NCBI GenBank assembly: GCA_963697755.1
Contig: CAVOPE010000007.1
Span: forward strand, 38,973-102,972
Source: an uncultured Gemmatimonadales bacterium
Lineage (GTDB): Bacteria > Gemmatimonadota > Gemmatimonadetes > Gemmatimonadales > GWC2-71-9
Length of the DNA stretch: 64,000 nucleotides
Direction of reading: 5' to 3'
The notes under the pieces were generated by a model, which worked only from the letters and a program-made list of their open reading frames with translations, did not search any database and had not been told where the DNA came from. Of this stretch, positions 19,303 through 62,604 are shown in pieces. How positions within the stretch are numbered: the stretch's first letter is position 1; every line of letters starts with the position of its first letter. The translations under genes and the position numbers were made by a program.

Positions 19303-20976
19303 ATGTCCAACCTCAGAAGCGCCGCGATCACCGCCGGCGTCCAGCGCGCGCCCAACCGGGCCATGCTCCGCGCCGTGGGCTTCGGCGACGCCGACTTCGG
19401 CAAGCCGATCATCGGTATCGCCAACGGCTACAGCACCATCACGCCCTGCAACGCGGGGCTCGACGTGCTCGCCGACCGTGCGGAGGTGGCGGTGAAGGCG
19501 GCCGGCGCCATGCCGCAGGTCTTCGGGACCATCACCGTCAGCGACGGCATCTCGATGGGCACCGAGGGGATGAAGTACTCGCTGGTCTCCCGCGAGGTCA
19601 TCGCCGACTCGATCGAGACGGCGTGCGGAGCCGAGAGCATGGACGGCGTCGTCGCGATCGGCGGGTGCGACAAGAACATGCCGGGGGCGATGATCGCGAT
19701 CGCCCGGATGAACATCCCGGCCATCTTCGTCTACGGCGGCACGATCAAGCCGGGACGCCTGGCGGGCCGCGACCTCACCGTGGTGAGCGCGTTCGAGGCC
19801 GTGGGACAGTTCAGCGCCGGCCGCATCGGCGAGAAGGAGCTGCTCGAGGTCGAGCGCCATGCCTGCCCCGGCAAGGGCTCGTGCGGCGGGATGTTCACGG
19901 CCAACACCATGTCGTCGGTGTTCGAGGCGATGGGCATGAGCCTGCCCCGGTCCTCCACCATGGCGGCCGAGGATGCCGAGAAGGCCGAGAGCGCCGCCCG
20001 CTCCGGCGAGGTGCTGGTGAACGCGGTGCGCCGGGGGATCCTGCCCCGCGCCATCCTCACGCGGCAGGCGTTCGAGAACGGGATCAGCGTCGCCATGGCG
20101 CTCGGCGGCAGCACCAACGCGGTGCTGCACCTGCTGGCCATCGCCCACTCGGCCGGGGTGCCGCTCGCGCTCGACGACTTCGAGGCGATCCGCGCTCGCG
20201 TACCCGTGCTGTGCGACCTCAAGCCGTCGGGCCGGTACGTCGCGACCGATCTGCACGCCGCCGGCGGAGTGCCGCAGGTCATGAAGATGCTGCTGGCCCA
20301 CGGCCTCCTGCATGGCGACGCGCTGACGATCACCGGCGAGACCATCGCGGAAAGCCTGCGGGACGTTCCCGCCAACCCTCGAGCCGACCAGGACGTGATC
20401 CGGCCATGGGCGCGTCCACTCTACGCGCAGGGCCATCTGGCCGTGCTCCGCGGCAACCTCGCGCCCGAGGGCGCGGTCGCGAAGATCACCGGCGTCAAGG
20501 AGCCCCGCATCACCGGGCCGGCCCGCGTGTTCGAGTCGGAGGAGGCATGCCTCGACGCCATCCTGGCCGGCCGGATCCGCCCGGGCGACGTCATCGTCAT
20601 TCGCTACGAGGGACCGCGCGGCGGACCGGGCATGCGGGAGATGCTGGCGCCGACCTCCGCGATCATCGGCGCGGGGCTGGGCGATTCGGTCGCCCTGATC
20701 ACCGACGGACGGTTCTCGGGCGGCACCTACGGGCTCGTGGTCGGCCACGTCGCGCCCGAGGCGGCGGCTGGCGGACCGCTCGCGCTCGTCGAGGAAGGCG
20801 ACCGCATCACGATCGACGCCCACGAACGCCTTCTCGCCGTCGACCTCGGCGCGGACGTGCTCGCCCGCCGGCGCGACGCGTGGACGCCGCCGGCGCCCCG
20901 CTACACCGCCGGCGTGCTGCTCAAGTACGCCCGTCAGGTCTCGAGCGCGAGCCTGGGCGCGGTGACGGATCTCTAG
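19303..20976 (+). CDS. ilvD: Dihydroxy-acid dehydratase
   Basis: [41 protein letters not shown] and [17 protein letters not shown] sits 6 nt before the ATG, so the mRNA may be leaderless. Confidence 0.96.
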
Positions 20977-21688: not shown

Positions 21689-21701
21689 CGCGGCGCCGCC
21701 G

Positions 21702-22794
21702 CTATACCGTCTCCTTCACCACCTCCCGCCCCGCGCGCACCAGCCCGGCCACGCGCTCCCCAATCGCCCGCGTGCCGAGCGTCGTCTCGCCCGGGCGGGC
21801 GATGTCGGGCGTCCGCGCGCCGGCGCTGATCACCGCGTCGACCGCCCGGTCGACCGCGTCGGCCGCCTCTAGTTGCTTGAGACCGTGGCGCAGCAGCATC
21901 GCCGCCGAGGCGATGGCGCCGATCGGGTTGGCGATCCCCTTGCCCGCGATATCGGGGGCCGAGCCGTGCACCGGCTCGAACAGCCCGGGACCATCCCCGA
22001 TGGAGGCCGAGGGGAGCAGTCCGAGCGATCCACTGAGCACGGCGGCCTCGTCGCTCAGGATGTCACCGAAGAGGTTCTCGGTGAGCAGCACGTCGATCGC
22101 GGCAGGCTCCGCGACGAGCCGCATCGCCGCGTAGTCGACGTACAGGTGCTCGAGCGTCACGTCCGGATAGCCGGACGCGACGCGCGTCACCGTCTCCCGC
22201 CAGAGCTGGGAGACCTCCAGGACGTTCGCCTTGTCCACCGAGGTCACCCGACCGCGCCGTCCCCGTGCCGCCTCGAACGCGACCCGGGCCACGCGCTCGA
22301 TCTCCGGGACCGAGTAGCGGAGGGTATTCACCGCCGCGTCCCGCTGCAGCGCGCGCGGCTCGCCGTAGTAGAGCCCGCCGAGCAGCTCGCGCACGATGAG
22401 GAGGTCCACGCCGTCGAGCCGTTCGGGGCGCAGCGGTGAGGCGTGCCGCAGCGCCCGGTGGACCACGACGGGCCGCAGGTTCGCGTAGGCGCCAAGGAGC
22501 TTGCGCAACGCGAGCAGCCCGGCCTCGGGGCGCCGGCGTCCTTCCGCCGTCGCCAGCGACGGGTGGCCGACGGCGCCGAGAAGGACCGCGTCGGCCTGCA
22601 CGACCGCGTCCGCGGTCGCCGCGGGGAGTGAATCGCCGGCCTCCGCCACGCCCGCCGCGCCTACAGCGTACGTCTGGCGTCTCGAGCGTCAGCCCGTGGA
22701 CGTCCGCGGCGGCCTGCAGCACCCGCACCGCCTCCAGGGTCACCTCGGGGCCGATACCGTCGCCCGGCAGGACCGCGATCACATAGCGGCTCAT
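21702..22794 (-). CDS. leuB: 3-isopropylmalate dehydrogenase (frameshift near 22670)
   Basis: [13 protein letters not shown] in one frame, then [19 protein letters not shown] and [12 protein letters not shown] in another. Confidence 0.92.
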
Positions 22795-23399
22795 GCGCCG
22801 GCTCCGCGCAGCTCGCCTCCCGCCGCCGCTCGAACGCCGCGATGCTCGGCTCATTCAGGAGGGTCTTGCCGATCTCGTCGAGCCCGCGGAGCAGCATGTC
22901 GCGGCGATACTCGTCCATTCCGAATCCCGAGTCGAAGCCATCGCCATCGCGCACGCGCTGCTCCACCAGATCCACGGTGAGCGTGTAGCCGGCGGCCTCG
23001 GCCCGGCGCGCGAGAACCTGTACCTGCGGCTCCGCTAGGACCACGGGCAGCAGCCCGTTCTGACAGCAGTTGTTGTAGAAGATGTCGGCAAACGACGGCG
23101 CGATGATCACCCGGAAGCCGTACTCAGCCAGCGCCCACGGCGCGTGCTCGCGCGAGACTGCCGCACCCGAAGTTGGCGCCGGTGATGAGAATCGATCGCG
23201 CCCGCGGCCTCGGGCCGATTCAGCTCGAAGCCGGGATTGGGCGACCCGTCGGGCAGGTAGCGCCAATCGAAGAACAGCGAGGGCCCGAACCCGGTGCGCT
23301 CGATCCGCTTGAGGAACTGCTTCGGAATGATCTGATCGGTGTCGACGTTCGCGCGGGGGAGCGAGACGGCGCGTCCGGTGTGCACGGAGAAGGCTGCAT
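22791..23399 (-). CDS. leuD: 3-isopropylmalate dehydratase small subunit (several frameshifts)
   Basis: [22 protein letters not shown] and [26 protein letters not shown] in different frames. Confidence 0.88.
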
Positions 23400-23557
23400 A
23401 CGCCCTTGGATAAATATGTCGAGCTGGGAGCGCCTGCTCGAACAAACGAGATTAAGTCACTTGTGGAAATCGTTGTTCTGCATAGTGTTAGCATCAATCA
23501 ACTAAAGTACATCAGAGGCCTGCATACGGCAGTCACACTCGCTGGATTTCGCGAGCA

Positions 23558-24982
23558 TCACCCTCGCATGTAGCTGCGCACGTCGACCAGTCGCCCTTCT
23601 ACGGCGGCCGCGGCCGCCATCATCGGACTCACGAGATGCGTGCGCCCGCCCTTCCCCTGCCGACCTTCGAAATTGCGATTCGACGTCGACGCGCAGCGCT
23701 CCCCCGGCCCCAGGATGTCGTCGTTCATACCGAGGCACATCGAGCACCCGGGATTGCGCCACTCGAAGCCCGCCTCGGTGAAGATGCGGTCGAGCCCTTC
23801 GAGCTCCGCCTGCGCCTTCACCCGCTGCGAGCCCGGCACCACCATCGCGCGAACTCCGCCCGCCACTTTCCTTCCCCGCGCCACCTTGGCGGCTTCGCGA
23901 AGATCTTCGATGCGGCGCGTTGGTGCACGAGCCCAGGAACACGCGGTCGACCTTGAGGCCCTCGAGCGGCGTGCCCGGGCGGAGCCCCATGTACTCGAGC
24001 GCCCGCGCGTACGACTGCCGGTCGGCCTCGGACGGCGCGTCGGCGGGATCGGGGATCCGCTCGGTGATCTCGGCCGTCATGCCCGGATTCGTCCCCCAGG
24101 TGACCTGCGGGCCCAGTCCCGCCGCGTCGATCGTCACGACCCGATCGTACTCGGCTCCGGGATCGGTTCGAAGCAGCTCCCACCCGCGACGCGCGTGTTC
24201 CCACGCCTGCGCGAGTCGGGGCCCTGGGCGGCCCTGCAGGTACGCGAAGGTGGTGTCGTCGGGTGCGACCAGGCCGGCGCGGGCGCCGGCCTCGATGGAC
24301 ATGTTGCAGACGGTCATCCGTCCTTCCATCGACAGGTTGCGGATGGCGTCGCCCGTGTACTCGATGACGTACCCGGTGGCGCCCTCGGTCCCGATGCGCC
24401 GGATGAGGGCGAGGACCAGGTCCTTCGCCGTGACCCCCGCGGCCGGCACGCCCGTGAATCGGACCTCCATCGTCTTCGGCCGCGCCTGGACGATGCACTG
24501 GGTCGCCAGCACGTGCTCGACCTCGCTGGTCCCGATCCCGAAGGCGAGCGCGCCGAACGCGCCGTGGGTCGACGTGTGCGAGTCGCCGCAGACGATGACC
24601 ATGCCGGGCTGGGTGAGGCCGAGCTCGGGGCCGATCACGTGCACGATGCCCTGCTCCGCGCTACTCGAGGTCGAACAGCTCGACCCCGAACTCCCGCGCG
24701 TTGCTCACGAGCGCCGCCACCTGGCGGGCCGCGATCTGATCGGCGATGGGAAGCCGGCGGTCGCCGGTGGGCACGTTGTGGTCGACGGTGGCCACCGTGA
24801 GCTCGGGCCGCCGCACGCGCCGTCCCGCGAGCCGCAGGCCCTCGAACGCCTGGGGGGAGGTGACCTCGTGGACGAGATGCAGATCGACGTAGAGCAGCGA
24901 GGGGCCAGCCGGGTCGGCTGCACTCCCGCCTCCGTCACGACGTGGGCGTCCCACACCTTGTCGACCAGGGTGCGCGAGGTGC

Positions 24983-24986
<4 letters not shown>
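23558..24986 (-). CDS. leuC: 3-isopropylmalate dehydratase large subunit (several frameshifts)
   Basis: [42 protein letters not shown] and [12 protein letters not shown] spread over four ORF fragments. Confidence 0.92.
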
Positions 24987-26059
<1,073 letters not shown>

Positions 26060-26074
26060 GGTCTCCGTCTCTCG

Positions 26075-26592
26075 TTAGATGTTCGCCGGCACGCTCGCGC
26101 CGGTCTCGGCCAGTCCGGTCTCCAGCGCGACGGCGCCGCTCCGCGCCACCTCCAGCACCTCGAACCGCTCGAGCGCGCGGATGCAGGAGAGCACGAACGC
26201 CTCCGAGCCGGTCATCTCGACGATGGTGGCCTCGGGGTTGTCGTCCACCACGGCGGCGTGGTAGAGCTGCACCACGTCGAGCAGCTCGCCGTAGCGCTCG
26301 CCCGTGGCGCGCACCTTCACCAGCGCCAGCTCGCGGGTGACCCCGTCGCGCGCGGGAAAGGCGACGGCGGCTCGGCACGCCCACCAGCTTCTCGCAGCTG
26401 CTGCACGGCCCGGTTGGCCGTGGCTTCGTCGGAGTGAATCATGATGGTCAGTCTCGAGACGCCCGGCGTCACCGTCGGACCGACGGCGAGGCTGCGTACG
26501 GGCAGGTTCCGCCGCCGGAGCAGTCCGACGGCACGGTTGAAGGTGATCAGACGATCCTCGAGCAACACCGTCACCGCGCGCATCGTGGTCAT
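26075..26592 (-). CDS. ilvN: Acetolactate synthase small (regulatory) subunit, frameshifted
   Basis: ACT-domain N-terminal part plus RELALVKV..IVEMTG..LEVARSG C-terminal part; lies between ilvB and ilvC. Confidence 0.8.
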
Positions 26593-28278
26593 GCGCTGAC
26601 GGTCTCCGACTCGATCGGCTCGCTGAGCGAGGCCCCCGGCGGGATCATCGGGAACACGTTGGCTTCCTGCTCGATGAGGAACTCGACCAGGACGGGACCC
26701 GCGTGGGCGTGGGCCGCGCGCAGCACCTCATCCACCTGCTCGGCGCGCTCCACCCGCCACGCCGGGATGCCGTACGCCTCCGCCAGGGCGACGTAGTCGG
26801 GGCTCCAGATCGGCGTCGCCGAGTAGCGGCGGCCGTGGAAGAACTGCTGCCACTGGCGCACCATGCCGAGGTAGCCGTTGTTGAAGATCGCCATCTTCAC
26901 CGGGATCTGCTCCTGCACCATCGTGGCGATCTCCTGCATGTTCATCTGGAAGCCGCCGTCGCCCGAGATGGCCCACACCGGCTCGCCCGGCCGCGCCAGA
27001 GTGCACGCCGATCGCCGCCGGCACGGCGAAGCCCATCGTGCCGAGCCCGCCCGACGTGATGTGGGTGTTGGGCCGCTGATAGCGGAACAGCTTGGCCACC
27101 CACATCTGGTGCTGACCCACGTCGGAGACGACGGTGCAACGCCCCGCGCTCGCGTCCTCGAGCGCCCGCAGGATGCCCTCGGGCGCCAGGTCGCCCTTGA
27201 AGCTGTCCACCCGCGGCCGCACGAAGCTCGCGATCTCGCCCCGCCAGGTGCCGCAGTCACGCGGCTCGATCGTCGCGAGCAGCTCGCGCAGGATCGTCCC
27301 GCGCGTCACCCACCAGACCGACCGTGACCGGCACGTTCTTGCCGATCTCCGAGGGGTCGAGCTCGATGTGGACGATCTTCGCGCCGCGGGCGAACGCCGC
27401 GAGGTTGCCGGTCACCCGGTCGTCGAACCGGAGCCCGATCCCGATGATGCAGGTCGGCCTGCTGGATCGCCCGGTTGACGTGCACTTCGCCGTGCATGCC
27501 GGGCATGCCCAGATGCAGCGGGTGCGACTCCGGGAACGCGCTGATCCCGAGCAGCGTGGTGATGACCGGTATGCCGGTCTGCTCGGCCAGGGTCTTGCAG
27601 CTCGTCGTACGCGTCGCCAGGATGACGCCGTGGCCGGCCATGATCAGCGGCCGCTGGGCGCGCCCGATGAGCCGGCTCGCCTCCACGATGGCCATCGGCG
27701 TCGGGCGGCCCACCAGCCCCGCGCGGCGGGCCTCCGGTACGCGCGGCGCCGGGTCCGTGTAGGCCAGCTTCTGGTTCTGCACGTCCTTCGGCACGTCGAG
27801 CAGCACCGGGCCGGGCCGACCCTCACGCGCCACGGCGAACGCCTTCACGCACCGCGTCGGCCAGCTCCTCCACGTCCTCGACCAGCCGGCTGTGCTTGGT
27901 GATCGGCTGGGTGATGCCGATGATGTCGGTCTCCTGGAACGCGTCGCGCCCGATCATTGCACGCGACACCTGGCCGGTGATGGCCACCAGCGGCGTGCTG
28001 TCCATGTGCGCGGTGGCGATGCCGGTCACCAGGTTGGTGGCGCCCGGCCCCGAGGTGGCGACGCACACGCCCGGGCGGCCGCTGGCGCGTGCGTAGCCGT
28101 CGGCGGCGTGCGCCGCGGCCTGCTCGTGCCGCACCAGCACGTGCCTGAGCGCCGGGTACTCGGGCAGGGCGTGGTAGAACGGCATGATCGCGCCGCCCGG
28201 GTACCCGAACATGAGATCGACCCCCTCGTCCAGCAGGGTGCGGCAGAGGATCTGGGAGCCGGTGAGCTGCTCCGCCAT
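26589..28278 (-). CDS. ilvB: Acetolactate synthase large subunit (several frameshifts)
   Basis: [50 protein letters not shown] and [23 protein letters not shown]. Confidence 0.92.
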
Positions 28279-29834
28279 CAGACGCCCCACAGTAGACGGC
28301 GTTGAGCGAGCTGGCCTCGAGGCGGTCCGCGTGGTGCGCCTTGTTGAGGGCATGCACCAGCGCGCGGGCGCTCGCCTCGACGATGTCGGTGGACGCGCCG
28401 TTCCCGGTGAGCGACTTGCCGTCCACCTTGACCTGGAGGAACACCTGGCCCACGCTGTCGCGTCCGGGCGTGAGCGAGCGGAGGGTCAGGCTCAGCACCT
28501 CGATCGGCCGCGTGAGGATCTCGCTGATGGCGGTGAACGCGGCCGCGATCGGGCCGTCACCGGTGCCCCGCGCCGACCGCTCGCCCGCCCACGGGCCGGT
28601 CATCCGTACCTCGGCGGTGGGGGTGATGCTGCCGCAGACGACCCGCAGGTGAGTGAGCTGGTATTCCTCGGGCGCATCGTGGAAGCTCTCGTGTACCAGC
28701 GCCAGCAGGTCCTCGTCGAGGATCTCGCGCTTCCGATCGGCCAGGGCGGTGAACTGCCGATAGACCTCCGCGAGCTGCACCTCGCTCAGGTCGTAGCCCA
28801 GCTCGCGGTAGCGTCGTTCGAGCGCGTGCCGGCCCGAGTGTTTGCCGAGCACCAGCGTCGAGCGCGGGATCCCGACCATCTCCGGCCGGATGATCTCGTA
28901 GGTGAGCCCGTTCTGCAGCATGCCGTGCTGATGGATGCCGGCCTCGTGGGCGAATGCGTTCCGTCCCACGATCGCCTTGTTGGGCTGCGGGAAGCTGCCG
29001 GTGAGGTAGGAAAGCAGCTGGCTGGTGCGGTAGATCTCGCGGGTCTCCACGTTGCACCGGAAGCCTAGCGCCGAGCCGCGCACGTGGCTCGCCATCACCA
29101 GCTCCTCCATCGCCGCGTTGCCGGCCCGCTCGCCGATGCCGTTCATGGTGCATTCCACCTGGCGCGCGCCCGGCCGCGATCGCGGCCAGGGAGTTGGCCA
29201 CCGCCAGTCCCAGATCGTCGTGGCAGTGCGCGCTCAGCACGACGCGGTCCGCGCCCGGGACCTTCTCCAGGATGTCCCGGAACATCCGGCCGTACTCCTC
29301 CGGCATGGCATAGCCGACCGTGTCGGGCAGGTTCACCGTGGTGGCACCCTCCTGAATGGCGACCTCGACGATCCGGCAGAGGAACTCGGGGTCGGTCCGG
29401 CTCGCGTCTTCGGCGCTGAACTCGACGTCGTCCGTGTACTGCCGGGCCTGACGGATGGCGGCTCGGGCGCGGGCCAGCACGTCCTCCCGCGTGGTCCGGA
29501 GCTTCTCCTTGATGTGGAGATCCGAGGTCGAGATGAAGACGTGGAGCCGGCCCCGCGCCGCGGGGCCGATCGCCTCGCCGGCGAGCTCGATGTCCCGCTC
29601 ATGGCAGCGCGCCAGCGCCGCCACGACCGGGCGCCGGATCTCGCCGGCGATCTGCTGGACGCTCCGGTAGTCGCCCTCCGACGCCGCGGGGAACCCGGCC
29701 TCCATGATGTCCACGCGCAGCGCATCGAGCTGGCGGGCGAGGCGGAGTTTCTCCTCGGGGGAGAGACTGTTGCCGGGCGCCTGCTCGCCGTCGCGCAGGG
29801 TGGTGTCGAAGATCAGGACGTCGGGGATTGCCAT
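28278..29834 (-). CDS. leuA: 2-isopropylmalate synthase (frameshifts near 29170 and 28292)
   Basis: [45 protein letters not shown] and a C-terminal regulatory domain. Confidence 0.93.
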
Positions 29835-29861: not shown

Positions 29862-29897
29862 AAACGAAAAGCGCCGCGGACTTCGGGTCCGCGGCGC
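29862..29897 (-). terminator. Attenuator terminator of the leuA-ilv-leu operon
   Basis: mRNA GCGCCGCGGAC-CCGAA-GTCCGCGGCGC-UUUUCGUUU, between the leader ORF and leuA. Confidence 0.85.
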
Positions 29898-29928
29898 CGG
29901 GGCAGTCTGTCGAGACGTTGCTACTGTC

Positions 29929-30030
29929 TCACGTTGCTCGTGTTGGCACGCCGCGAACCCCTTGCTCACCGATAAGGCCGGTAAGCAACAGGCTAAGGAG
30001 CACGATGACGAGCGCGAGGCTGAGCAGCAT
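29929..30030 (-). CDS. Leu/Ile/Val-rich leader peptide (33 aa)
   Basis: [33 protein letters not shown]. 14 of the first 20 codons are Leu/Val/Ile, including CTT and TTG codons. Confidence 0.88.
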
Positions 30031-30095
30031 GGTCTGGGCTGTGGTCCTGATCGCTGGAGTCGCCGCCGGGCCGCTGCGGCACCGGCTATTTACAC

Positions 30096-30125
30096 AGGCT
30101 AACGTGCGGACCGTGGGGGTGTCAA
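30096..30125 (-). promoter_or_regulatory. sigma70 promoter of the leuA operon leader
   Basis: TTGACA-N18-TAGCCT on the minus strand. Confidence 0.65.
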
Positions 30126-30139
30126 GTGGGCGCCTCCGC

Positions 30140-30171
30140 TTGACATATTCATTGGCGTGAATAATAATCCA
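30140..30171 (+). promoter_or_regulatory. sigma70 promoter of gltB overlapped by an ARG-box-like operator
   Basis: TTGACA-N17-AATAAT. TGAATAATAATCCA (30158-30171) resembles the ArgR box core, and TATTCA-N6-TGAATA is palindromic. Confidence 0.65.
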
Positions 30172-30174
30172 TCC

Positions 30175-30243
30175 ATGAGCATGCTGCGTACGCCGGCCGA
30201 CGTCCTTATTGATCTCGCCCGCTCCAGGGGAGCGACCGGGTAA
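30175..30243 (+). CDS. Putative gltB leader peptide (22 aa)
   Basis: MSMLRTPADVLIDLARSRGATG*. The ATG lies at the predicted +1, and the 3' end is complementary to the 5' arm of the downstream terminator. Confidence 0.55.
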   Translation: MSMLRTPADVLIDLARSRGATG

Positions 30244-30268
30244 GCGAGCGATTTCGCGCACCATCCCC

Positions 30269-30297
30269 GGCCCGCTCCCACGAGGAGTGGGCCTTTT
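30269..30297 (+). terminator. Intrinsic terminator in the gltB 5' leader
   Basis: GGCCCGCTCC-CACGA-GGAGTGGGCC-TTTT, about 55 nt before the gltB ATG. Confidence 0.8.
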
Positions 30298-30352
30298 GCT
30301 TGCCCCGCATCGGCCTCTCCGGCCGCCAGGGGCGCTCACCGCAGGAGGTACC

Positions 30353-33300
30353 ATGGCCGCCCCTGGGCAGCGGATCCACCCGGCCGGTTCCCGTCCGACC
30401 GACCCCCGACACGCCGCGACCTCGGCCGACGAGGCGCTCGATCCCACGCGCGAGCACGACGCCTGCGGCGTCGGGTTCGTCGCGCACGCGTCGGGCGTGC
30501 GCTCGCACGAGGTCGTCTCCATGGCCTTGGCGGCCGTGGCCCGGGTGGCCCACCGCGGCGCCGCGTCGACGGACAACTCCGGCGACGGGGCGGGACTGCT
30601 GACCCAGATACCCCACCGCCTGTTCTATCGCGACGCCTATCGTCTCGGCCTGCATCTGCAGCCCGGCCTGCCGTTCGGCGTCGGCAGCTTCTTCCTGCCG
30701 CGCGAGCCGCAGGCGCTGGGCGAAGCCGTGGCCATGATCGAGACCGTGCTGGCCGAGGACGGGATCCCCTTCCTGGGCTGGCGCGACGTGCCCACCAATC
30801 CCGCCGCCCTCGGCCCCACCGCGCTCGCGTCGTGCCCGGTGATCCGGCAGGTGCTGGTGGGCCGCCCCGCCCTGGCGGCGGACGAGGAGCAGTGGGAGCA
30901 GTCGCTCTACCTCGCGCGACGAGAGATGGAACGACGCGCGGGCGAGCGCAACTTGCCCGGGTTCTACGCCTGCTCCTTCTCCTGCCGCACCCTCGTCTAC
31001 AAAGCGCTGCTCACCGGGACCCAACTCCCCGCGTTCTTCACCGACTTCAGGTATCCCGAGTACGAGAGCGCGATCGCGGTCTTCCACCAGCGCTACTCGA
31101 CCAACACGCTGCCGAGCTGGCCGCTGGCGCAGCCGTTCCGGCTGCTGGCCCACAACGGGGAGATCAACACCCTGTGGGGCAACCGGAACGCGATGACGAT
31201 GCGGCAGCCGATGCTGTCGTCGCCGATCTGGGGCAAGAAGATCGAGCGCCTGCGGGAGGTGATCTGGCCGGAGGGCAGCGACTCCGCAAGCCTCGACAAC
31301 GCCATGGAGCTGCTGACCCGGTCGGGGCGCGACGTGGTGCACACGTCGATGATGATGGTGCCCCAGGCGTGGGAGAAGTATGCCGATCTCGATCCGGCGG
31401 TGAAGGCGTTCTACGAATACCACCAGTGCGTGCTCGAGCCGTGGGACGGCCCCGCGGCCATCGCCTTCACCGACGGCGTACTCTGCGGCGCGTCGGTGGA
31501 CCGGAACGGCCTCCGCCCTTCGCGGTACAAGGTGCGCCGCGACGGGCTCGTGGTGTCGGGCTCCGAGGTCGGCCTGGTCGACCTCGATCCGCGCGAGGTG
31601 GTGGAGTGCGGCAAGGTTGGACCGGGCGAGGTCCTGGTCGTGGATACTCGCCGAGGCGAGGTCATTCGGAACGTCGATGCGAAGCGCGAGGTGGCGGGAC
31701 GCCGCCCCTACGCCCGCTGGGTCGCCCGCTACATGGCGACGCTCGCGCCCGATCCCGCGCGGGTTCCACCGGTGCACGCCGGCGAGGCGCTCACCCGGGC
31801 GCAACGCAGCTTCGGCTACGGGTTCGAGGACCTCCGGCTCGTGCTCGAGCCGATGGGCGGGACCGGCGCCGATCCGGTCTGGAGCATGGGCGACGACACT
31901 CCGATCCCTCCGCTCTCGGCGGTGCCGCAGAGTCTGTACGCCTACTTCCGCCAGCGATTCGCGCAGGTGACCAACCCACCGATCGACTCGCTGCGCGAGG
32001 CGATGGTGATGTCGCTCCGAATGCACCTGGGCCGCCGCGGCTCGCCGCTGCTCGAACGTCCGAGCTACGCCCGCATGCTCCGGCTCGAGCACCCCGTGCT
32101 GCTGGCCGAGGAGATGACGGCGCTCCGGAACGTGGCCGGCTTCTCGACCGTGACGCTCGACGCGCTCTGGGACACCACCCGCGGGCCGGACGGCCTCAAG
32201 CCGGCGCTCACCGCGCTCCGCCGCGCGGCGGAGCGGGCGGCGCGCCGCGGCGCGCACATCCTCATCATCAGCGACCGCTCGGCCGACGCGACCCGGGCGC
32301 CGATCCCGATGCTGCTGGCGATCGGCGCGGTGCGCCAGCATCTCGTCCACACCGGCCTGCGCGCACGCGTCGGCCTCGTCGCCGAGGCGGGCGACGCGTT
32401 CGACATCCACCACTTCGCGACGCTGATCGGCTACGGCGCCGAGGCGGTTCACCCCTGGCTGGCCCTCGAGTCCCTCGACGGCGTGTTCGGCGAGGGCCGC
32501 GAGCCGTCCCGGCGCGAGCGCGATGCCGACGCGACGCCGAGACCGTCGCCCGCGGAGGCACGACTCCAGTACCGCTCGGCGGCGGAGAAGGGTCTGCTGA
32601 AGATCCTCTCGAAAATGGGCATCTCCACGCTGAGCTCGTATTGCGGCGCCCAGATCTTCGAGATCCTGGGGCTGGGACACGAGGTCGTCAGCACCTGCTT
32701 CGCGGGCACCGCCTCGCCGATCGGCGGCATCGGCTTCGAGGAGATCGCCGAGGACGTGCTCACGCGGCACCGCGCGGCCCACCCCGCGACGGCGGAGGTC
32801 GTGTCCCTGCCCGACCACGGCCGGGTGCGCTTTCGCAAGGATGGCGAGGACCACGGCTGGGCCCCCCCGGTGGTGGTGGCGCTGCAGCAGGCGGTGAAGA
32901 CCAACGGCGCGGACGCGTATGGCGGCTTCCTGGTCAAGAACTCGGGCCGCCGACCCGCCGGCCCGCGCGATCTCCTGGCCGTCCGGCCCGGGACGCCGGT
33001 GCCGCTGGACGAGGTGGAATCCGCGGAATCGATCCGCACGCGGTTCGTGTCGTCCGCCATGTCGCTCGGCGCGCTCTCGCCGGAGGCGCACGCGACGCTC
33101 TCGATCGCCATGAACCGGATGGGCGCCCGCTCGAACTCCGGTGAAGGCGGCGAGGACCCGCACAACTATCACGGCTTCGCCAACGGCGACCGGGCCGACA
33201 ACCGGATCAAGCAGGTGGCGAGCGCGCGGTTCGGCGTCACCACCGAGTACCTGACCCGCGCCGAAGAGCTCGAGATCAAGATCGTGCAGGGCGCCAAGCC

Positions 33301-34987
33301 CGGCGAAGGCGGCCAGCTCCCGGCGCACAAGGTGACGGACCTGATCGCGCGTCTCCGGCATTCGGTGCCGGGCGTGGCACTGATCTCGCCGCCGCCGCAC
33401 CACGACATTTACTCGATCGAGGACCTGGCACAGCTCATCCACGACCTCAAGACCGTGAACCCGCGGGCTCGGGTGGGCGTGAAGCTGGTGAGCGAGACCG
33501 GGGTCGGGACGGTCGCGGCCGGCGTGGCGAAGGCCTACGCCGACTACGTCCTGATCGCCGGTCATAACGGCGGCACCGGGGCGTCTCCCCTCTCCTCGAT
33601 CAAGCACGCGGGCTCCCCGTGGGAGCTCGGGCTCGCCGAAGCCCAGGCGACGCTCGTACGGAACGGTCTCCGCCACCGGATCGAGGTCCGCACCGACGGC
33701 GGGCTCAAGACCGGGCGCGACGTCGTCATCGCTGCGTTGCTCGGCGCCGAGAGCTACGGCTTCGGGACGGCACCGCTCGTGGCCATGGGCTGCGCGATGG
33801 CGCGGCAGTGTCACATCAACACGTGCCCGACCGGGATCGCCACCCAGCGGGAGGATCTCCGCACCAAGTTCAAGGGCACGCCCGAGCAGGTCATCGGCTA
33901 CTTCACGCTGCTCGCCGAGGAGGTCCGGACGATCCTCGCTGGGATGGGTGCGCGCAGCCTGGACGAGATCATCGGCCGGAACGACCTGCTCCAGCGGGTC
34001 GAGCGGCCGGACGTGCCGCGGGCGCAGATGCTCGACCTGTCCATGCTGATGGCGCCGCCGGCGTTGGAGACCCCGCCCGGCCATCCGGCACCCGCCCGGC
34101 GGCGCACCGAAGCCCGGAACGACCGGCCCGGCGTGGTCTCGCTCGACGCCGAGATCCTGGCCGACCTCGAGCCCTATCTCGAGAGCGGGCTGCCGTTCTC
34201 GGGGAACTATCCGATCCACAATCACCACCTGGCGGTGGGCGCCCGGGTCGCCGGCGCGATCGCCGAGCTCCATGGCGACGCGGGGCTGGCGCCAGGCTCC
34301 GTCCGACTCCGCTTCACCGGCAGCGCGGGACAGAGCTTCGGGGCGTTCACCTGCCGGGGGATGCACCTTGAGCTGGAGGGCGAGGCAAACGACTACGTGG
34401 GCAAGGGGCTGAGCGGCGGCGAGCTGACCATTCGGCCGTTCCGGCGGGCCGCCTACGCGGACGTGTCGCATCAGCACCTGATCATCGGCAACACGATCCT
34501 GTACGGCGCCACCGCCGGCAAGCTGTTCGCGGCCGGACAGGCGGGCGATCGATTCGGGGTGAGGAACTCCGGTGCGGTCGCGGTGATCGAAGGGGCGGGC
34601 AACCACTGCTGCGAGTACATGACCAGTGGCATCGTGGTCGTGCTGGGCCGCGCCGGCCGTAACTTCGGGGCCGGGATGTCGAACGGTGTCGCCTATGTGG
34701 TCGACGAGGCCGGCACGTTCGAGACCCGGGTGAACAAGGACATGGTCGAGCTGAGTGCGCTCGACGAGACCGACATCGTCTTGCTGCAGCGGCTGGTGCG
34801 GGAGCACGAGGAGAAGACCGCCAGCCCGCGCGCCCGTCGCATCCTGGTTCAGTGGGACCAGTTCGTACCGCTGTTCCGCCGTGTGTCACCCAAGGGGGCG
34901 GAGGCGCTGGTCGCCGCTACGCGTGAGGGTTACCTGCAGTCCGCGGCGACTGAGCCCGAGCCGGTGCTGGCGCGCCGGAGCGCCTGA
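30353..34987 (+). CDS. gltB: Glutamate synthase large subunit
   Basis: AGGAGG RBS; HDACGVGF, HQRYSTNT, HNGEINTL, QGAKPGEGGQLP and CAMARQCHINTCPTG. Confidence 0.97.
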   Translation: MAAPGQRIHPAGSRPTDPRHAATSADEALDPTREHDACGVGFVAHASGVRSHEVVSMALAAVARVAHRGAASTDNSGDGAGLLTQIPHRLFYRDAYRLGLHLQPGLPFGVGSFFLPREPQALGEAVAMIETVLAEDGIPFLGWRDVPTNPAALGPTALASCPVIRQVLVGRPALAADEEQWEQSLYLARREMERRAGERNLPGFYACSFSCRTLVYKALLTGTQLPAFFTDFRYPEYESAIAVFHQRYSTNTLPSWPLAQPFRLLAHNGEINTLWGNRNAMTMRQPMLSSPIWGKKIERLREVIWPEGSDSASLDNAMELLTRSGRDVVHTSMMMVPQAWEKYADLDPAVKAFYEYHQCVLEPWDGPAAIAFTDGVLCGASVDRNGLRPSRYKVRRDGLVVSGSEVGLVDLDPREVVECGKVGPGEVLVVDTRRGEVIRNVDAKREVAGRRPYARWVARYMATLAPDPARVPPVHAGEALTRAQRSFGYGFEDLRLVLEPMGGTGADPVWSMGDDTPIPPLSAVPQSLYAYFRQRFAQVTNPPIDSLREAMVMSLRMHLGRRGSPLLERPSYARMLRLEHPVLLAEEMTALRNVAGFSTVTLDALWDTTRGPDGLKPALTALRRAAERAARRGAHILIISDRSADATRAPIPMLLAIGAVRQHLVHTGLRARVGLVAEAGDAFDIHHFATLIGYGAEAVHPWLALESLDGVFGEGREPSRRERDADATPRPSPAEARLQYRSAAEKGLLKILSKMGISTLSSYCGAQIFEILGLGHEVVSTCFAGTASPIGGIGFEEIAEDVLTRHRAAHPATAEVVSLPDHGRVRFRKDGEDHGWAPPVVVALQQAVKTNGADAYGGFLVKNSGRRPAGPRDLLAVRPGTPVPLDEVESAESIRTRFVSSAMSLGALSPEAHATLSIAMNRMGARSNSGEGGEDPHNYHGFANGDRADNRIKQVASARFGVTTEYLTRAEELEIKIVQGAKPGEGGQLPAHKVTDLIARLRHSVPGVALISPPPHHDIYSIEDLAQLIHDLKTVNPRARVGVKLVSETGVGTVAAGVAKAYADYVLIAGHNGGTGASPLSSIKHAGSPWELGLAEAQATLVRNGLRHRIEVRTDGGLKTGRDVVIAALLGAESYGFGTAPLVAMGCAMARQCHINTCPTGIATQREDLRTKFKGTPEQVIGYFTLLAEEVRTILAGMGARSLDEIIGRNDLLQRVERPDVPRAQMLDLSMLMAPPALETPPGHPAPARRRTEARNDRPGVVSLDAEILADLEPYLESGLPFSGNYPIHNHHLAVGARVAGAIAELHGDAGLAPGSVRLRFTGSAGQSFGAFTCRGMHLELEGEANDYVGKGLSGGELTIRPFRRAAYADVSHQHLIIGNTILYGATAGKLFAAGQAGDRFGVRNSGAVAVIEGAGNHCCEYMTSGIVVVLGRAGRNFGAGMSNGVAYVVDEAGTFETRVNKDMVELSALDETDIVLLQRLVREHEEKTASPRARRILVQWDQFVPLFRRVSPKGAEALVAATREGYLQSAATEPEPVLARRSA

Positions 34988-62054: not shown

Positions 62055-62604
<550 letters not shown>

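Follow-up and report, generated by a model that had tools for sequence, protein, structure and literature searches.

A putative leader-peptide attenuator of the glutamate synthase gene gltB in Gemmatimonadales

Leader-peptide attenuation is textbook knowledge for pathways that make the amino acid being sensed, and its classical representatives are the trpL, leuL and ilv leaders of the amino-acid operons of Escherichia coli and Salmonella. Here we describe a candidate attenuator upstream of gltB, the gene encoding the glutamate synthase (GOGAT) large subunit, in a stretch of 64,000 nucleotides (nt) from an uncultured Gemmatimonadales bacterium (contig CAVOPE010000007.1, positions 38,973 to 102,972; hereafter the window). 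Like the classical attenuators, it combines a promoter-proximal short open reading frame (ORF), four complementary segments, numbered 1 to 4 in the direction of transcription, and a terminator before the first structural gene, an arrangement in which a stalled ribosome would select the antiterminator. It is unlike them in several respects. The target is glutamate synthase and not a pathway that supplies the amino acids of the leader peptide; Glu and Gln codons are missing, and there are just about three candidate sensor codons, scattered and not clustered; the upstream ORF (uORF) lacks a Shine-Dalgarno sequence and has its ATG at the predicted +1; segment 1 copies segment 3 and may close the terminator, whereas its pairing with segment 2 is weak (about -6 to -10 kcal/mol); and the leader matches no Rfam leader family. 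Rare Leu codons, described for the classical leu leader (PMC1183508), are also found in the gltB leader.

Two further groups of described systems are close to the candidate. The ilvB1 leader of Mycobacterium tuberculosis has four regulatory codons for branched-chain amino acids (BCAA), LVVI, and is supported by SEnd-seq and reporter data (PMC13236596). It likewise belongs to a high-GC organism and has a short uORF with few BCAA codons, in which the ribosome position sets the choice between antiterminator and terminator; it differs in controlling a BCAA biosynthesis operon and in its experimental support, whereas the gltB element is a prediction from sequence. Leaderless regulatory ORFs have been predicted for Deinococcus deserti (14 leader peptides; PMC4007540), and Cys-responsive leaderless short ORFs have been reported for mycobacteria (10.1101/834739). 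In these systems the start codon of a short regulatory ORF in front of a metabolic gene is the transcription start, as is predicted for the gltB leader from promoter geometry, but they belong to other phyla. Moreover, the Cys uORFs of M. smegmatis are described as regulated by translation attenuation (PMC13236596), whereas the gltB leader has an intrinsic terminator.

Glutamate synthase is usually described as being under DNA-binding regulators, for example Lrp, IHF, Crp and ArgR at the gltBDF operon of E. coli (PMC1784095). The common ground would be that expression of the enzyme is tied to global amino-acid status and not to glutamate alone; the difference is that DNA-binding proteins act at the promoter in E. 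coli, whereas the gltB element described here is encoded in cis in the leader RNA and would be read by the ribosome. The preliminary description of the locus knew of no leader-peptide attenuation of gltB, and none was found in the literature that we searched on attenuation of gltB or glutamate synthase. The words gltB and glutamate are absent from Naville and Gautheret 2010 (PMC2965389), a look-up of terms in a second attenuation paper (PMC13236596) gave no such attenuator either, and searches of the literature on leaderless genes in Gemmatimonadetes and on transcription starts and promoters in Gemmatimonas returned nothing relevant.

The comparison is based on a genome scan with GltB residues 1-500, which yielded 593 confirmed relatives, the best 80 of which were analysed. 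Close relatives among these 80 are two metagenome-assembled genomes (MAGs) of Gemmatimonadales, termed L001 (87% identity) and L003 (74%), while the other 78 are 38-51% identical and belong to other phyla; these affinities place the window, too, in the Gemmatimonadales. The features of the gltB locus are as follows, with identities given for the three pairwise comparisons between the window, L001 and L003:

30140..30168, plus strand: predicted sigma-70-type promoter, TTGACA (30140-45), spacer of 17 nt (N17), AATAAT (30163-68)
30175..30243, plus strand: leader uORF, 22 codons and TAA, encoding MSMLRTPADVLIDLARSRGATG
30205..30219, plus strand: codons -12 to -8 relative to the stop codon, the putative stall window, CTT ATT GAT CTC GCC (L I D L A)
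30217..30225, plus strand: segment 1, GCCCGCTCC, located in the uORF and duplicating the terminator 5' arm (identity 8/9, 8/9, 7/9)
30228..30240, plus strand: segment 2, GGGAGCGACCGGG, antiterminator strand formed by the last uORF codons (11/13, 13/13, 11/13)
30244..30265, plus strand: variable spacer, apical part of the 2:3 hairpin (12/22, 9/23, 8/23)
30266..30279, plus strand: segment 3, CCCGGCCCGCTCCC, partner of segment 2 or segment 4 (14/15, 14/15, 13/15)
30269..30302, plus strand: intrinsic terminator, stem 30269-78 / 30284-93, loop CACGA, tail TTTTGCTTG
30344..30348, plus strand: Shine-Dalgarno sequence of gltB, GGAGG, invariant in the three genomes
30353..34987, plus strand: gltB, glutamate synthase large subunit, 1544 amino acids, the putatively controlled gene

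We consider it likely that this element is a ribosome-mediated transcription attenuator that gates gltB. The leader possesses the structural hallmarks of attenuators, namely a uORF, a terminator and an antiterminator that excludes it. The promoter agrees with the consensus in 11 of 12 positions and is the sole promoter-like site that a consensus scan retrieved between 29000 and 31500, a region whose shuffled versions contain 0.2 such sites on average (sd 0.6); its counterpart in both L001 and L003 is TTGACG-N17-AATAAT. The A of the uORF start codon (30175) is the seventh nt after the -10 box, and since the predicted transcription start is thus located at or beside the ATG, the uORF transcript is probably leaderless, with translation beginning at about the transcription start. 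In the ORF listing, the same frame is extended to an upstream GTG (30157..30243). The terminator stem (30269-30293) comprises ten pairs, eight of them G-C, with a loop of five nt and a tail that the terminator scan reports as TTTTGCTTGC; segment 4 corresponds to 30284-93 and is directly followed by the T-tract. Promoter, start codon with 22-codon ORF and terminator had all been recognized in the preliminary description and were confirmed at the positions given there; a promoter, a uORF and a terminator recur in both relatives.

The motif GCCCGCTCC is present twice, as segment 1 and within segment 3, and segments 2 and 4 are both complementary to it. Segment 1, which had been overlooked so far, is able to pair with segment 2, if weakly, or with segment 4, and as a consequence of the duplication segment 4 has two possible partners, segments 3 and 1, for closing the terminator stem. 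The calculated energies for the window, L001 and L003 are -9.7, -7.2 and -6.4 kcal/mol for 1:2, -26.4, -33.7 and -33.1 kcal/mol for isolated 2:3, -20.3, -22.3 and -25.3 kcal/mol for the isolated 3:4 terminator, and -47.3, -53.7 and -49.9 kcal/mol for the nested structure in which 1:4 encloses 2:3. The nested hairpin is also the fold of the free leader in the window and L001, and in L001 and L003 the spacer folds atop the 2:3 helix. The complementarity between 30228-30240 and 30266-79, proposed from inspection of the sequence, was confirmed in the window (-26.4 kcal/mol for isolated 2:3 vs -20.3 kcal/mol for the terminator).

The gene downstream encodes an intact protein with all four Pfam domains GATase_2, Glu_syn_central, Glu_synthase and GXGXG and without an internal stop. 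It is separated from the terminator by 50-60 nt of GC-rich sequence in all three genomes, and the consensus scan retrieved no promoter-like site in this interval in the window, L001 or L003, so that gltB must be reached by read-through. The same observations bear on the idea that the promoter, the short ORF and the terminator are an autonomous transcription unit, producing a small protein or a small RNA (sRNA) with a constitutive terminator, while gltB is expressed without regulation by constant leak-through or from an unrecognized promoter. Such a unit would indeed be complete within about 125 nt, and RNAs derived from attenuators can reportedly act in trans (PMC6614838). The short promoter-less gap in front of gltB speaks against it, however, as do segments 1 and 2, whose duplication and complementarity would be purposeless in an independent ORF, and the peptide, whose N-terminal half is poorly conserved and which has no Pfam match. 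We thus regard an autonomous unit as improbable.

The structural conservation of the locus lends further weight to an attenuator. L001 and L003 share the complete layout, beginning with a divergent leuA gene with a Leu-rich leader and back-to-back -35 boxes, followed by the promoter and a uORF whose end comes immediately after segment 2; a variable spacer then leads to the terminator, and a second hairpin precedes GGAGG and gltB. Segments 1-4 are identical at 42/47, 44/47 and 41/47 positions in the three pairwise comparisons, while the terminator loop (3/5, 2/6, 1/6) and the tail (6/11, 7/11, 6/11) have diverged. The fourfold degenerate sites in the first 600 codons of gltB are 55% identical (180/326, 149/269 and 151/273), thus indicating that neutral positions are saturated. 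The preservation of the pairing strands amid a scrambled spacer, loop and tail and against this neutral background argues for selection on exactly the four pairing strands. All ten pairs of the terminator are kept in the three genomes, one of them as G-U. Across the three sequences, 95.8% of the cells are paired in the 1:2 plus 3:4 structure and 95.2% in the 1:4 plus 2:3 structure (94% in the 2:3 helix alone), values that drop to 31-58% when the partners are slid by one to three columns.

A covariance model of the attenuator was searched over the window and the 80 loci (599,879 bases). Only the three leaders scored, with 111, 109 and 88 bits, and the match ranked next (E 0.0049) corresponds to the hairpin of the window itself, in antisense; the model detected the element neither at another place in the window nor at any of the 78 gltB loci of other phyla. 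A search of the leaders of the window, L003 and L001 against Rfam gave no family at threshold, the best being sub-threshold matches to terminator-like sRNAs, and a known leader or riboswitch family (Leu, Trp, Thr and His leaders, the glutamine riboswitch etc.) was rejected on the basis of these scores. A blastn comparison of the leader with the PLSDB plasmids yielded no match.

The reading frame is conserved along with the RNA strands. The uORFs of L001 (MNAALRAPVTALAKLVRSLGAAG, 23 amino acids) and L003 (MPNVTRPTCPNTKLLKKLIVARPTGATG, 28 amino acids) differ from that of the window by +1 and +6 codon indels, but the frame is kept and closed by a stop codon in all three genomes (TAA, TAA and TAG). 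The ATG follows the -10 box at a distance of 6 nt in the window and L001 and 9 nt in L003. An Arg near the N-terminus is conserved through three synonymous codons (CGT, CGC and CGA), and a synonymous exchange of GCG for GCC in L001 breaks one pair of the 2:3 helix, which fits a coding constraint on the uORF. At the peptide level, segments 1 and 2 show substitutions (A/V, S/P, R/L/T and T/A), and the pattern as a whole fits a leader whose translation would matter rather than its peptide product. An arrest peptide, suggested by the conserved C-terminal R-S-x-G-A-x-G, was rejected as the main interpretation because these residues vary while the RNA strands persist.

These data also allow to weigh a conditional terminator that depends on RNA only or on a factor, acting like a riboswitch or recognized by an RNA-binding protein, with a uORF that is incidental and untranslated. 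The concentration of conservation in the RNA strands, the variable residues in segments 1 and 2, the second conserved hairpin with its invariant loop after the terminator and the observation that leaderless genes show no sign of being common in the window are all compatible with this scenario. Nevertheless, it leaves the preservation of the ATG at the predicted start, of the frame across indels and of the stop codon in all three genomes unaccounted for, and the synonymous GCG-to-GCC exchange comes at the expense of a base pair. The three leaders reach the threshold of no Rfam family, and the complementary strands are their only strongly conserved parts, without any additional conserved region resembling a ligand pocket. 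The probability of this alternative is accordingly low in our view.

The proposed function of the attenuator comprises three states. In the naked RNA, 2:3 would form, 1:4 would pair on top of it and transcription would terminate. A ribosome at or near the stop codon would mask segments 1 and 2, so that 3:4 would form and transcription would terminate as well. A ribosome stalling when its A site is some 9-11 codons away from the stop would mask segment 1 and leave segment 2 free; 2:3 would then form ahead of the synthesis of segment 4, which would be left without a partner, and RNA polymerase would read into gltB. Codons -12 to -8 are taken as the stall window, where a ribosome would cover segment 1 and leave segment 2 exposed.

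The states were modelled by masking 28 nt around each A-site position to represent the ribosome and folding the remainder of the leader. With the A site anywhere from -7 to the stop, the ribosome covers segment 2, and all three leaders form 3:4 (P ~1.0). In the absence of a ribosome, or with a ribosome far upstream, the nested hairpin is obtained for the window and L001 and 3:4 for L003; in both folds segment 4 is paired beside the T-tract, which suggests termination. When the transcript extends no further than segment 3, the 2:3 core reaches P values of 0.99-1.00 for A-site positions from -11 to -9 in all three leaders. The values at -8 are 0.64, 0.66 and 0.02, and those at -12 amount to 0.91-0.99 with segment 1 still free.

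The amino-acid composition of the stall window provides a hint at the signal. It encodes L-I-D-L-A in the window, L-A-K-L-V in L001 and K-L-I-V-A in L003, and Leu, Ile and Val account for 9 of these 15 residues, compared with 8 of the 58 residues in the remainder of the peptides (Fisher p 6e-4); relative to their share of 21% in gltB, the binomial p is 1.3e-3. The statistics were calculated post hoc for three related leaders with small counts, on a stall window chosen with the sequences already in view, and we take them as suggestive. Stalling on Val, Leu or Ile had been proposed on the basis of the motif V-L-I-D-L; the exact motif is not kept, but the prevalence of the three residues and the enrichment of CTT are in line with the proposal. 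The rarity that was ascribed to the AT-rich codons and to AGG is evident from gltB of the window, in which CTT accounts for 1 of 149 Leu codons, ATT for 3 of 59 Ile codons and AGG for 2 of 137 Arg codons. Of the Leu codons, CTT represents 4 of 10 in the gltB leaders and 10 of 27 in the leuA leaders, while the coding sequences of gltB use it for 10 of 358.

The leuA leader is located on the opposite strand of the same intergenic region and had escaped notice in the preliminary description:

29929-30030 (ORF), 29898..29870 (terminator) and 29834 (ATG of leuA), minus strand: leuA leader ORF and terminator of the divergent neighbour

It is clearly a classical-looking leucine attenuator, as judged from its sequence. 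The leader ORF encodes 33 amino acids with 10 Leu codons, three of which are CTT, and the antiterminator strand is encoded by conserved R-G-V-P codons. The attenuator precedes the minus-strand cluster leuA-ilvB-ilvC-leuC-leuD-leuB and is kept in L001 (about 1993-2145) and L003 (about 2490-2643), thereby indicating that the lineage uses leader-peptide attenuation; the leuA leader matches no Rfam family. The gltB leader shares with its neighbour the intergenic control region, the terminator style, the position of the antiterminator strand in the 3' part of the ORF and the use of CTT and CTT-ATY, the latter closing the Leu run of every one of the three leuA leaders and being present in two of the three gltB leaders. 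The two differ in that leuA leaders have 8-10 Leu codons and a predicted 5' untranslated region (UTR) of about 55 nt, whereas gltB leaders have 3-4 Leu codons and no 5' UTR.

Based on the Leu/Ile/Val-rich stall window with its rare CTT codon, a low level of charged Leu (BCAA) tRNA appears to be the most likely signal, a plausible assignment to which we give about an even chance. The chances are equally balanced for the complete statement, i.e., an attenuator of gltB that responds to Leu or BCAA supply. A shortage of charged Leu tRNA would then induce GOGAT together with the leuA-ilv-leu operon, which is divergent and has an attenuator of its own.

The alternative that the uORF attenuator is real and the signal is not BCAA is backed by the same architecture. 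General ribosome slowing, the shortage of any amino acid, Arg or the translation of the uORF itself could serve as signal, and each stall window has just three non-tandem BCAA codons. For general stalling there is a precedent in whiB7, which is induced by ribosome stalling within its uORF (PMC13236596). For Arg, the CGC codon inside segment 1 is invariant in the three genomes and the N-terminal Arg is conserved via three synonymous codons; furthermore, gltBDF of E. coli is repressed by ArgR and is under a Lrp control that is insensitive to leucine (PMC1784095). However, an A site on the invariant CGC masks five nt of segment 2 and reduces the P of the 2:3 core to 0.00 in all three leaders, and the N-terminal Arg is too far upstream for masking segment 1. 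Sensing of Arg via the invariant CGC is therefore disfavoured, because a ribosome at this codon already masks segment 2. Any signal other than BCAA moreover leaves the enrichment of CTT in common with the leuA leaders unexplained, and we judge this alternative to be rather unlikely.

Several observations weigh against an attenuator that responds to BCAA. With segment 4 present, the terminator is the favoured equilibrium structure at the majority of stall positions, by ~1-9 kcal/mol. The antiterminator holds at equilibrium only in L001, at -11 and -10, and in L003 the terminator wins everywhere; this return to the terminator, the weakest point of the folding analysis, implies that read-through would depend on a kinetic trap, as in classical attenuators. 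Termination by the nested 1:4 hairpin is likewise our own deduction from the folds. The folding of the whole leader is unremarkable (z -1.57), with 14 of 200 shuffles being at least as stable. L003 deviates in having a weak T-tract (TTTCGTTGG), a mismatch in segment 1 (C opposite A) and an ATG placed 9 nt after the -10 box. Boxes resembling a -10 element 5-8 nt before the start are found at 5 of 1071 candidate gene starts, compared with 18 of 3619 for all ATG and GTG codons in the window, and given this lack of enrichment it is promoter geometry that argues for leaderless initiation.

The comparative and the codon data have their own weak points. The conservation sample consists of three genomes from a single order, the Gemmatimonadales, and compensatory changes are found for none of the pairs in either structure. 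Three near-invariant sequences give covariation no power to speak for or against the helices, whose support consists in sequence conservation. The comparison of related gltB upstream regions, which had been suggested as a test, retrieved the uORF and the helix strands in all three genomes, but neither the highlighted codons nor covariation. In particular, V-L-I-D-L is not a conserved motif, its equivalents being T-A-L-A-K-L-V in L001 and L-L-K-K-L-I-V in L003, and the rare AGG codon is replaced by CTG in L001 and ACG in L003. The three BCAA codons per stall window are few and not in tandem. None of the three leaders contains codons for Glu or Gln, the product and the substrate of the enzyme, and the gltB leaders hence lack the regulatory codons matching the pathway product that are typical of attenuators.

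The duplicated arm allows for a more elaborate reading, in which the terminator is a "double-lock" whose 3' arm closes on either of the duplicated 5' arms, the one in the uORF or the one downstream. Read-through would require that both arms are blocked together, with the ribosome covering segment 1 and segment 2 occupying segment 3. The leaderless peptide would read the level of charged Leu/BCAA tRNA via rare codons of the CUU type and, together with the leuA leader, constitute a bidirectional control region that functions without proteins. We propose this combination of double-lock, leaderless Leu/BCAA sensing and bidirectional leuA/gltB control only tentatively, as less likely than not.

The novelty of the candidate attenuator is its unusual target gene, with a noteworthy layout of duplicated arms; it does not represent a new class of mechanism. 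If confirmed, it would bring central nitrogen assimilation under the reach of ribosome-mediated attenuation and provide a first example of a cis-regulatory RNA in the little-studied phylum Gemmatimonadota. GOGAT, a central enzyme of nitrogen assimilation, would then be switched by the ribosome itself in Gemmatimonadales, and the charging of BCAA tRNAs would control the supply of the amino-group donor as a cross-pathway wiring. The duplicated-arm layout would moreover be a design variant that is useful for models of attenuators.

Terminator-like hairpins were also sought in the 400 nt upstream of gltB in all 80 loci, in four of which the start codon was not found. At least one such hairpin is present in 15 loci, including L001 and L003. 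Two of the other 13 were inspected. In one of these (L069), the hairpin comes after the stop of an upstream ORF. The second, a MAG of the Chloroflexota (L005), has a 24-codon uORF, MLTMERVRRPHTGGGSVLVRARGT, followed by a hairpin with TTTTGTG 77 nt before gltB (2809-2925); the fold of this leader is no better than that of shuffled sequences (z +0.92).

The terminator of the window is followed by a second hairpin (30302..30333, plus strand) with an inner stem at 30311-15 / 30321-25 and the loop TCTCC at 30316-20. The loop is invariant within CCTCTCCGG in all three genomes, while the stem shows one swap from G-C to C-G. The loop is complementary to the Shine-Dalgarno sequence GGAGG of gltB (30344-48), and the hairpin may add a translational or stability control.

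The -35 boxes of the gltB-leader and leuA-leader promoters are located back to back between 30120 and 30145, where they form the inverted repeat TGTCAAG-N12-CTTGACA common to both promoters. The arrangement is kept in L001 and L003 with a spacing of 12-20 nt, and the repeat is a possible site for a common regulator. Three ORFs that overlap the leader region (29929-30576 and 30099-30281 on the minus strand, 29918-30160 on the plus strand) were treated as spurious, as the best Pfam match has an E value of 0.29.

Downstream of gltB, the gene gltD for the small subunit is absent, and the ORFs on both strands between 34988 and 37015 have no Pfam match; gltB of the window thus appears to be monocistronic. 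On the other side, leuA is split by one frameshift at about 29169-29170, where a tblastn alignment with LeuA of L003 changes frame at residue 221. The Pfam matches of ilvB, leuC, leuD and leuB (21700-28300) are partial or spread across separate ORFs, whereas the adjoining gltB is intact over 4.6 kb. The fragmentation stems either from indels in the assembly or from decay of the BCAA operon. Elsewhere in the window, two long ORFs have their start 6 nt after a TANNNT box and are candidate leaderless genes in terms of their sequence, one at 19303 on the plus strand and the other at 62604 on the minus strand, the latter in the arrangement TTGCTC-N17-TACTCT-N6-ATG.

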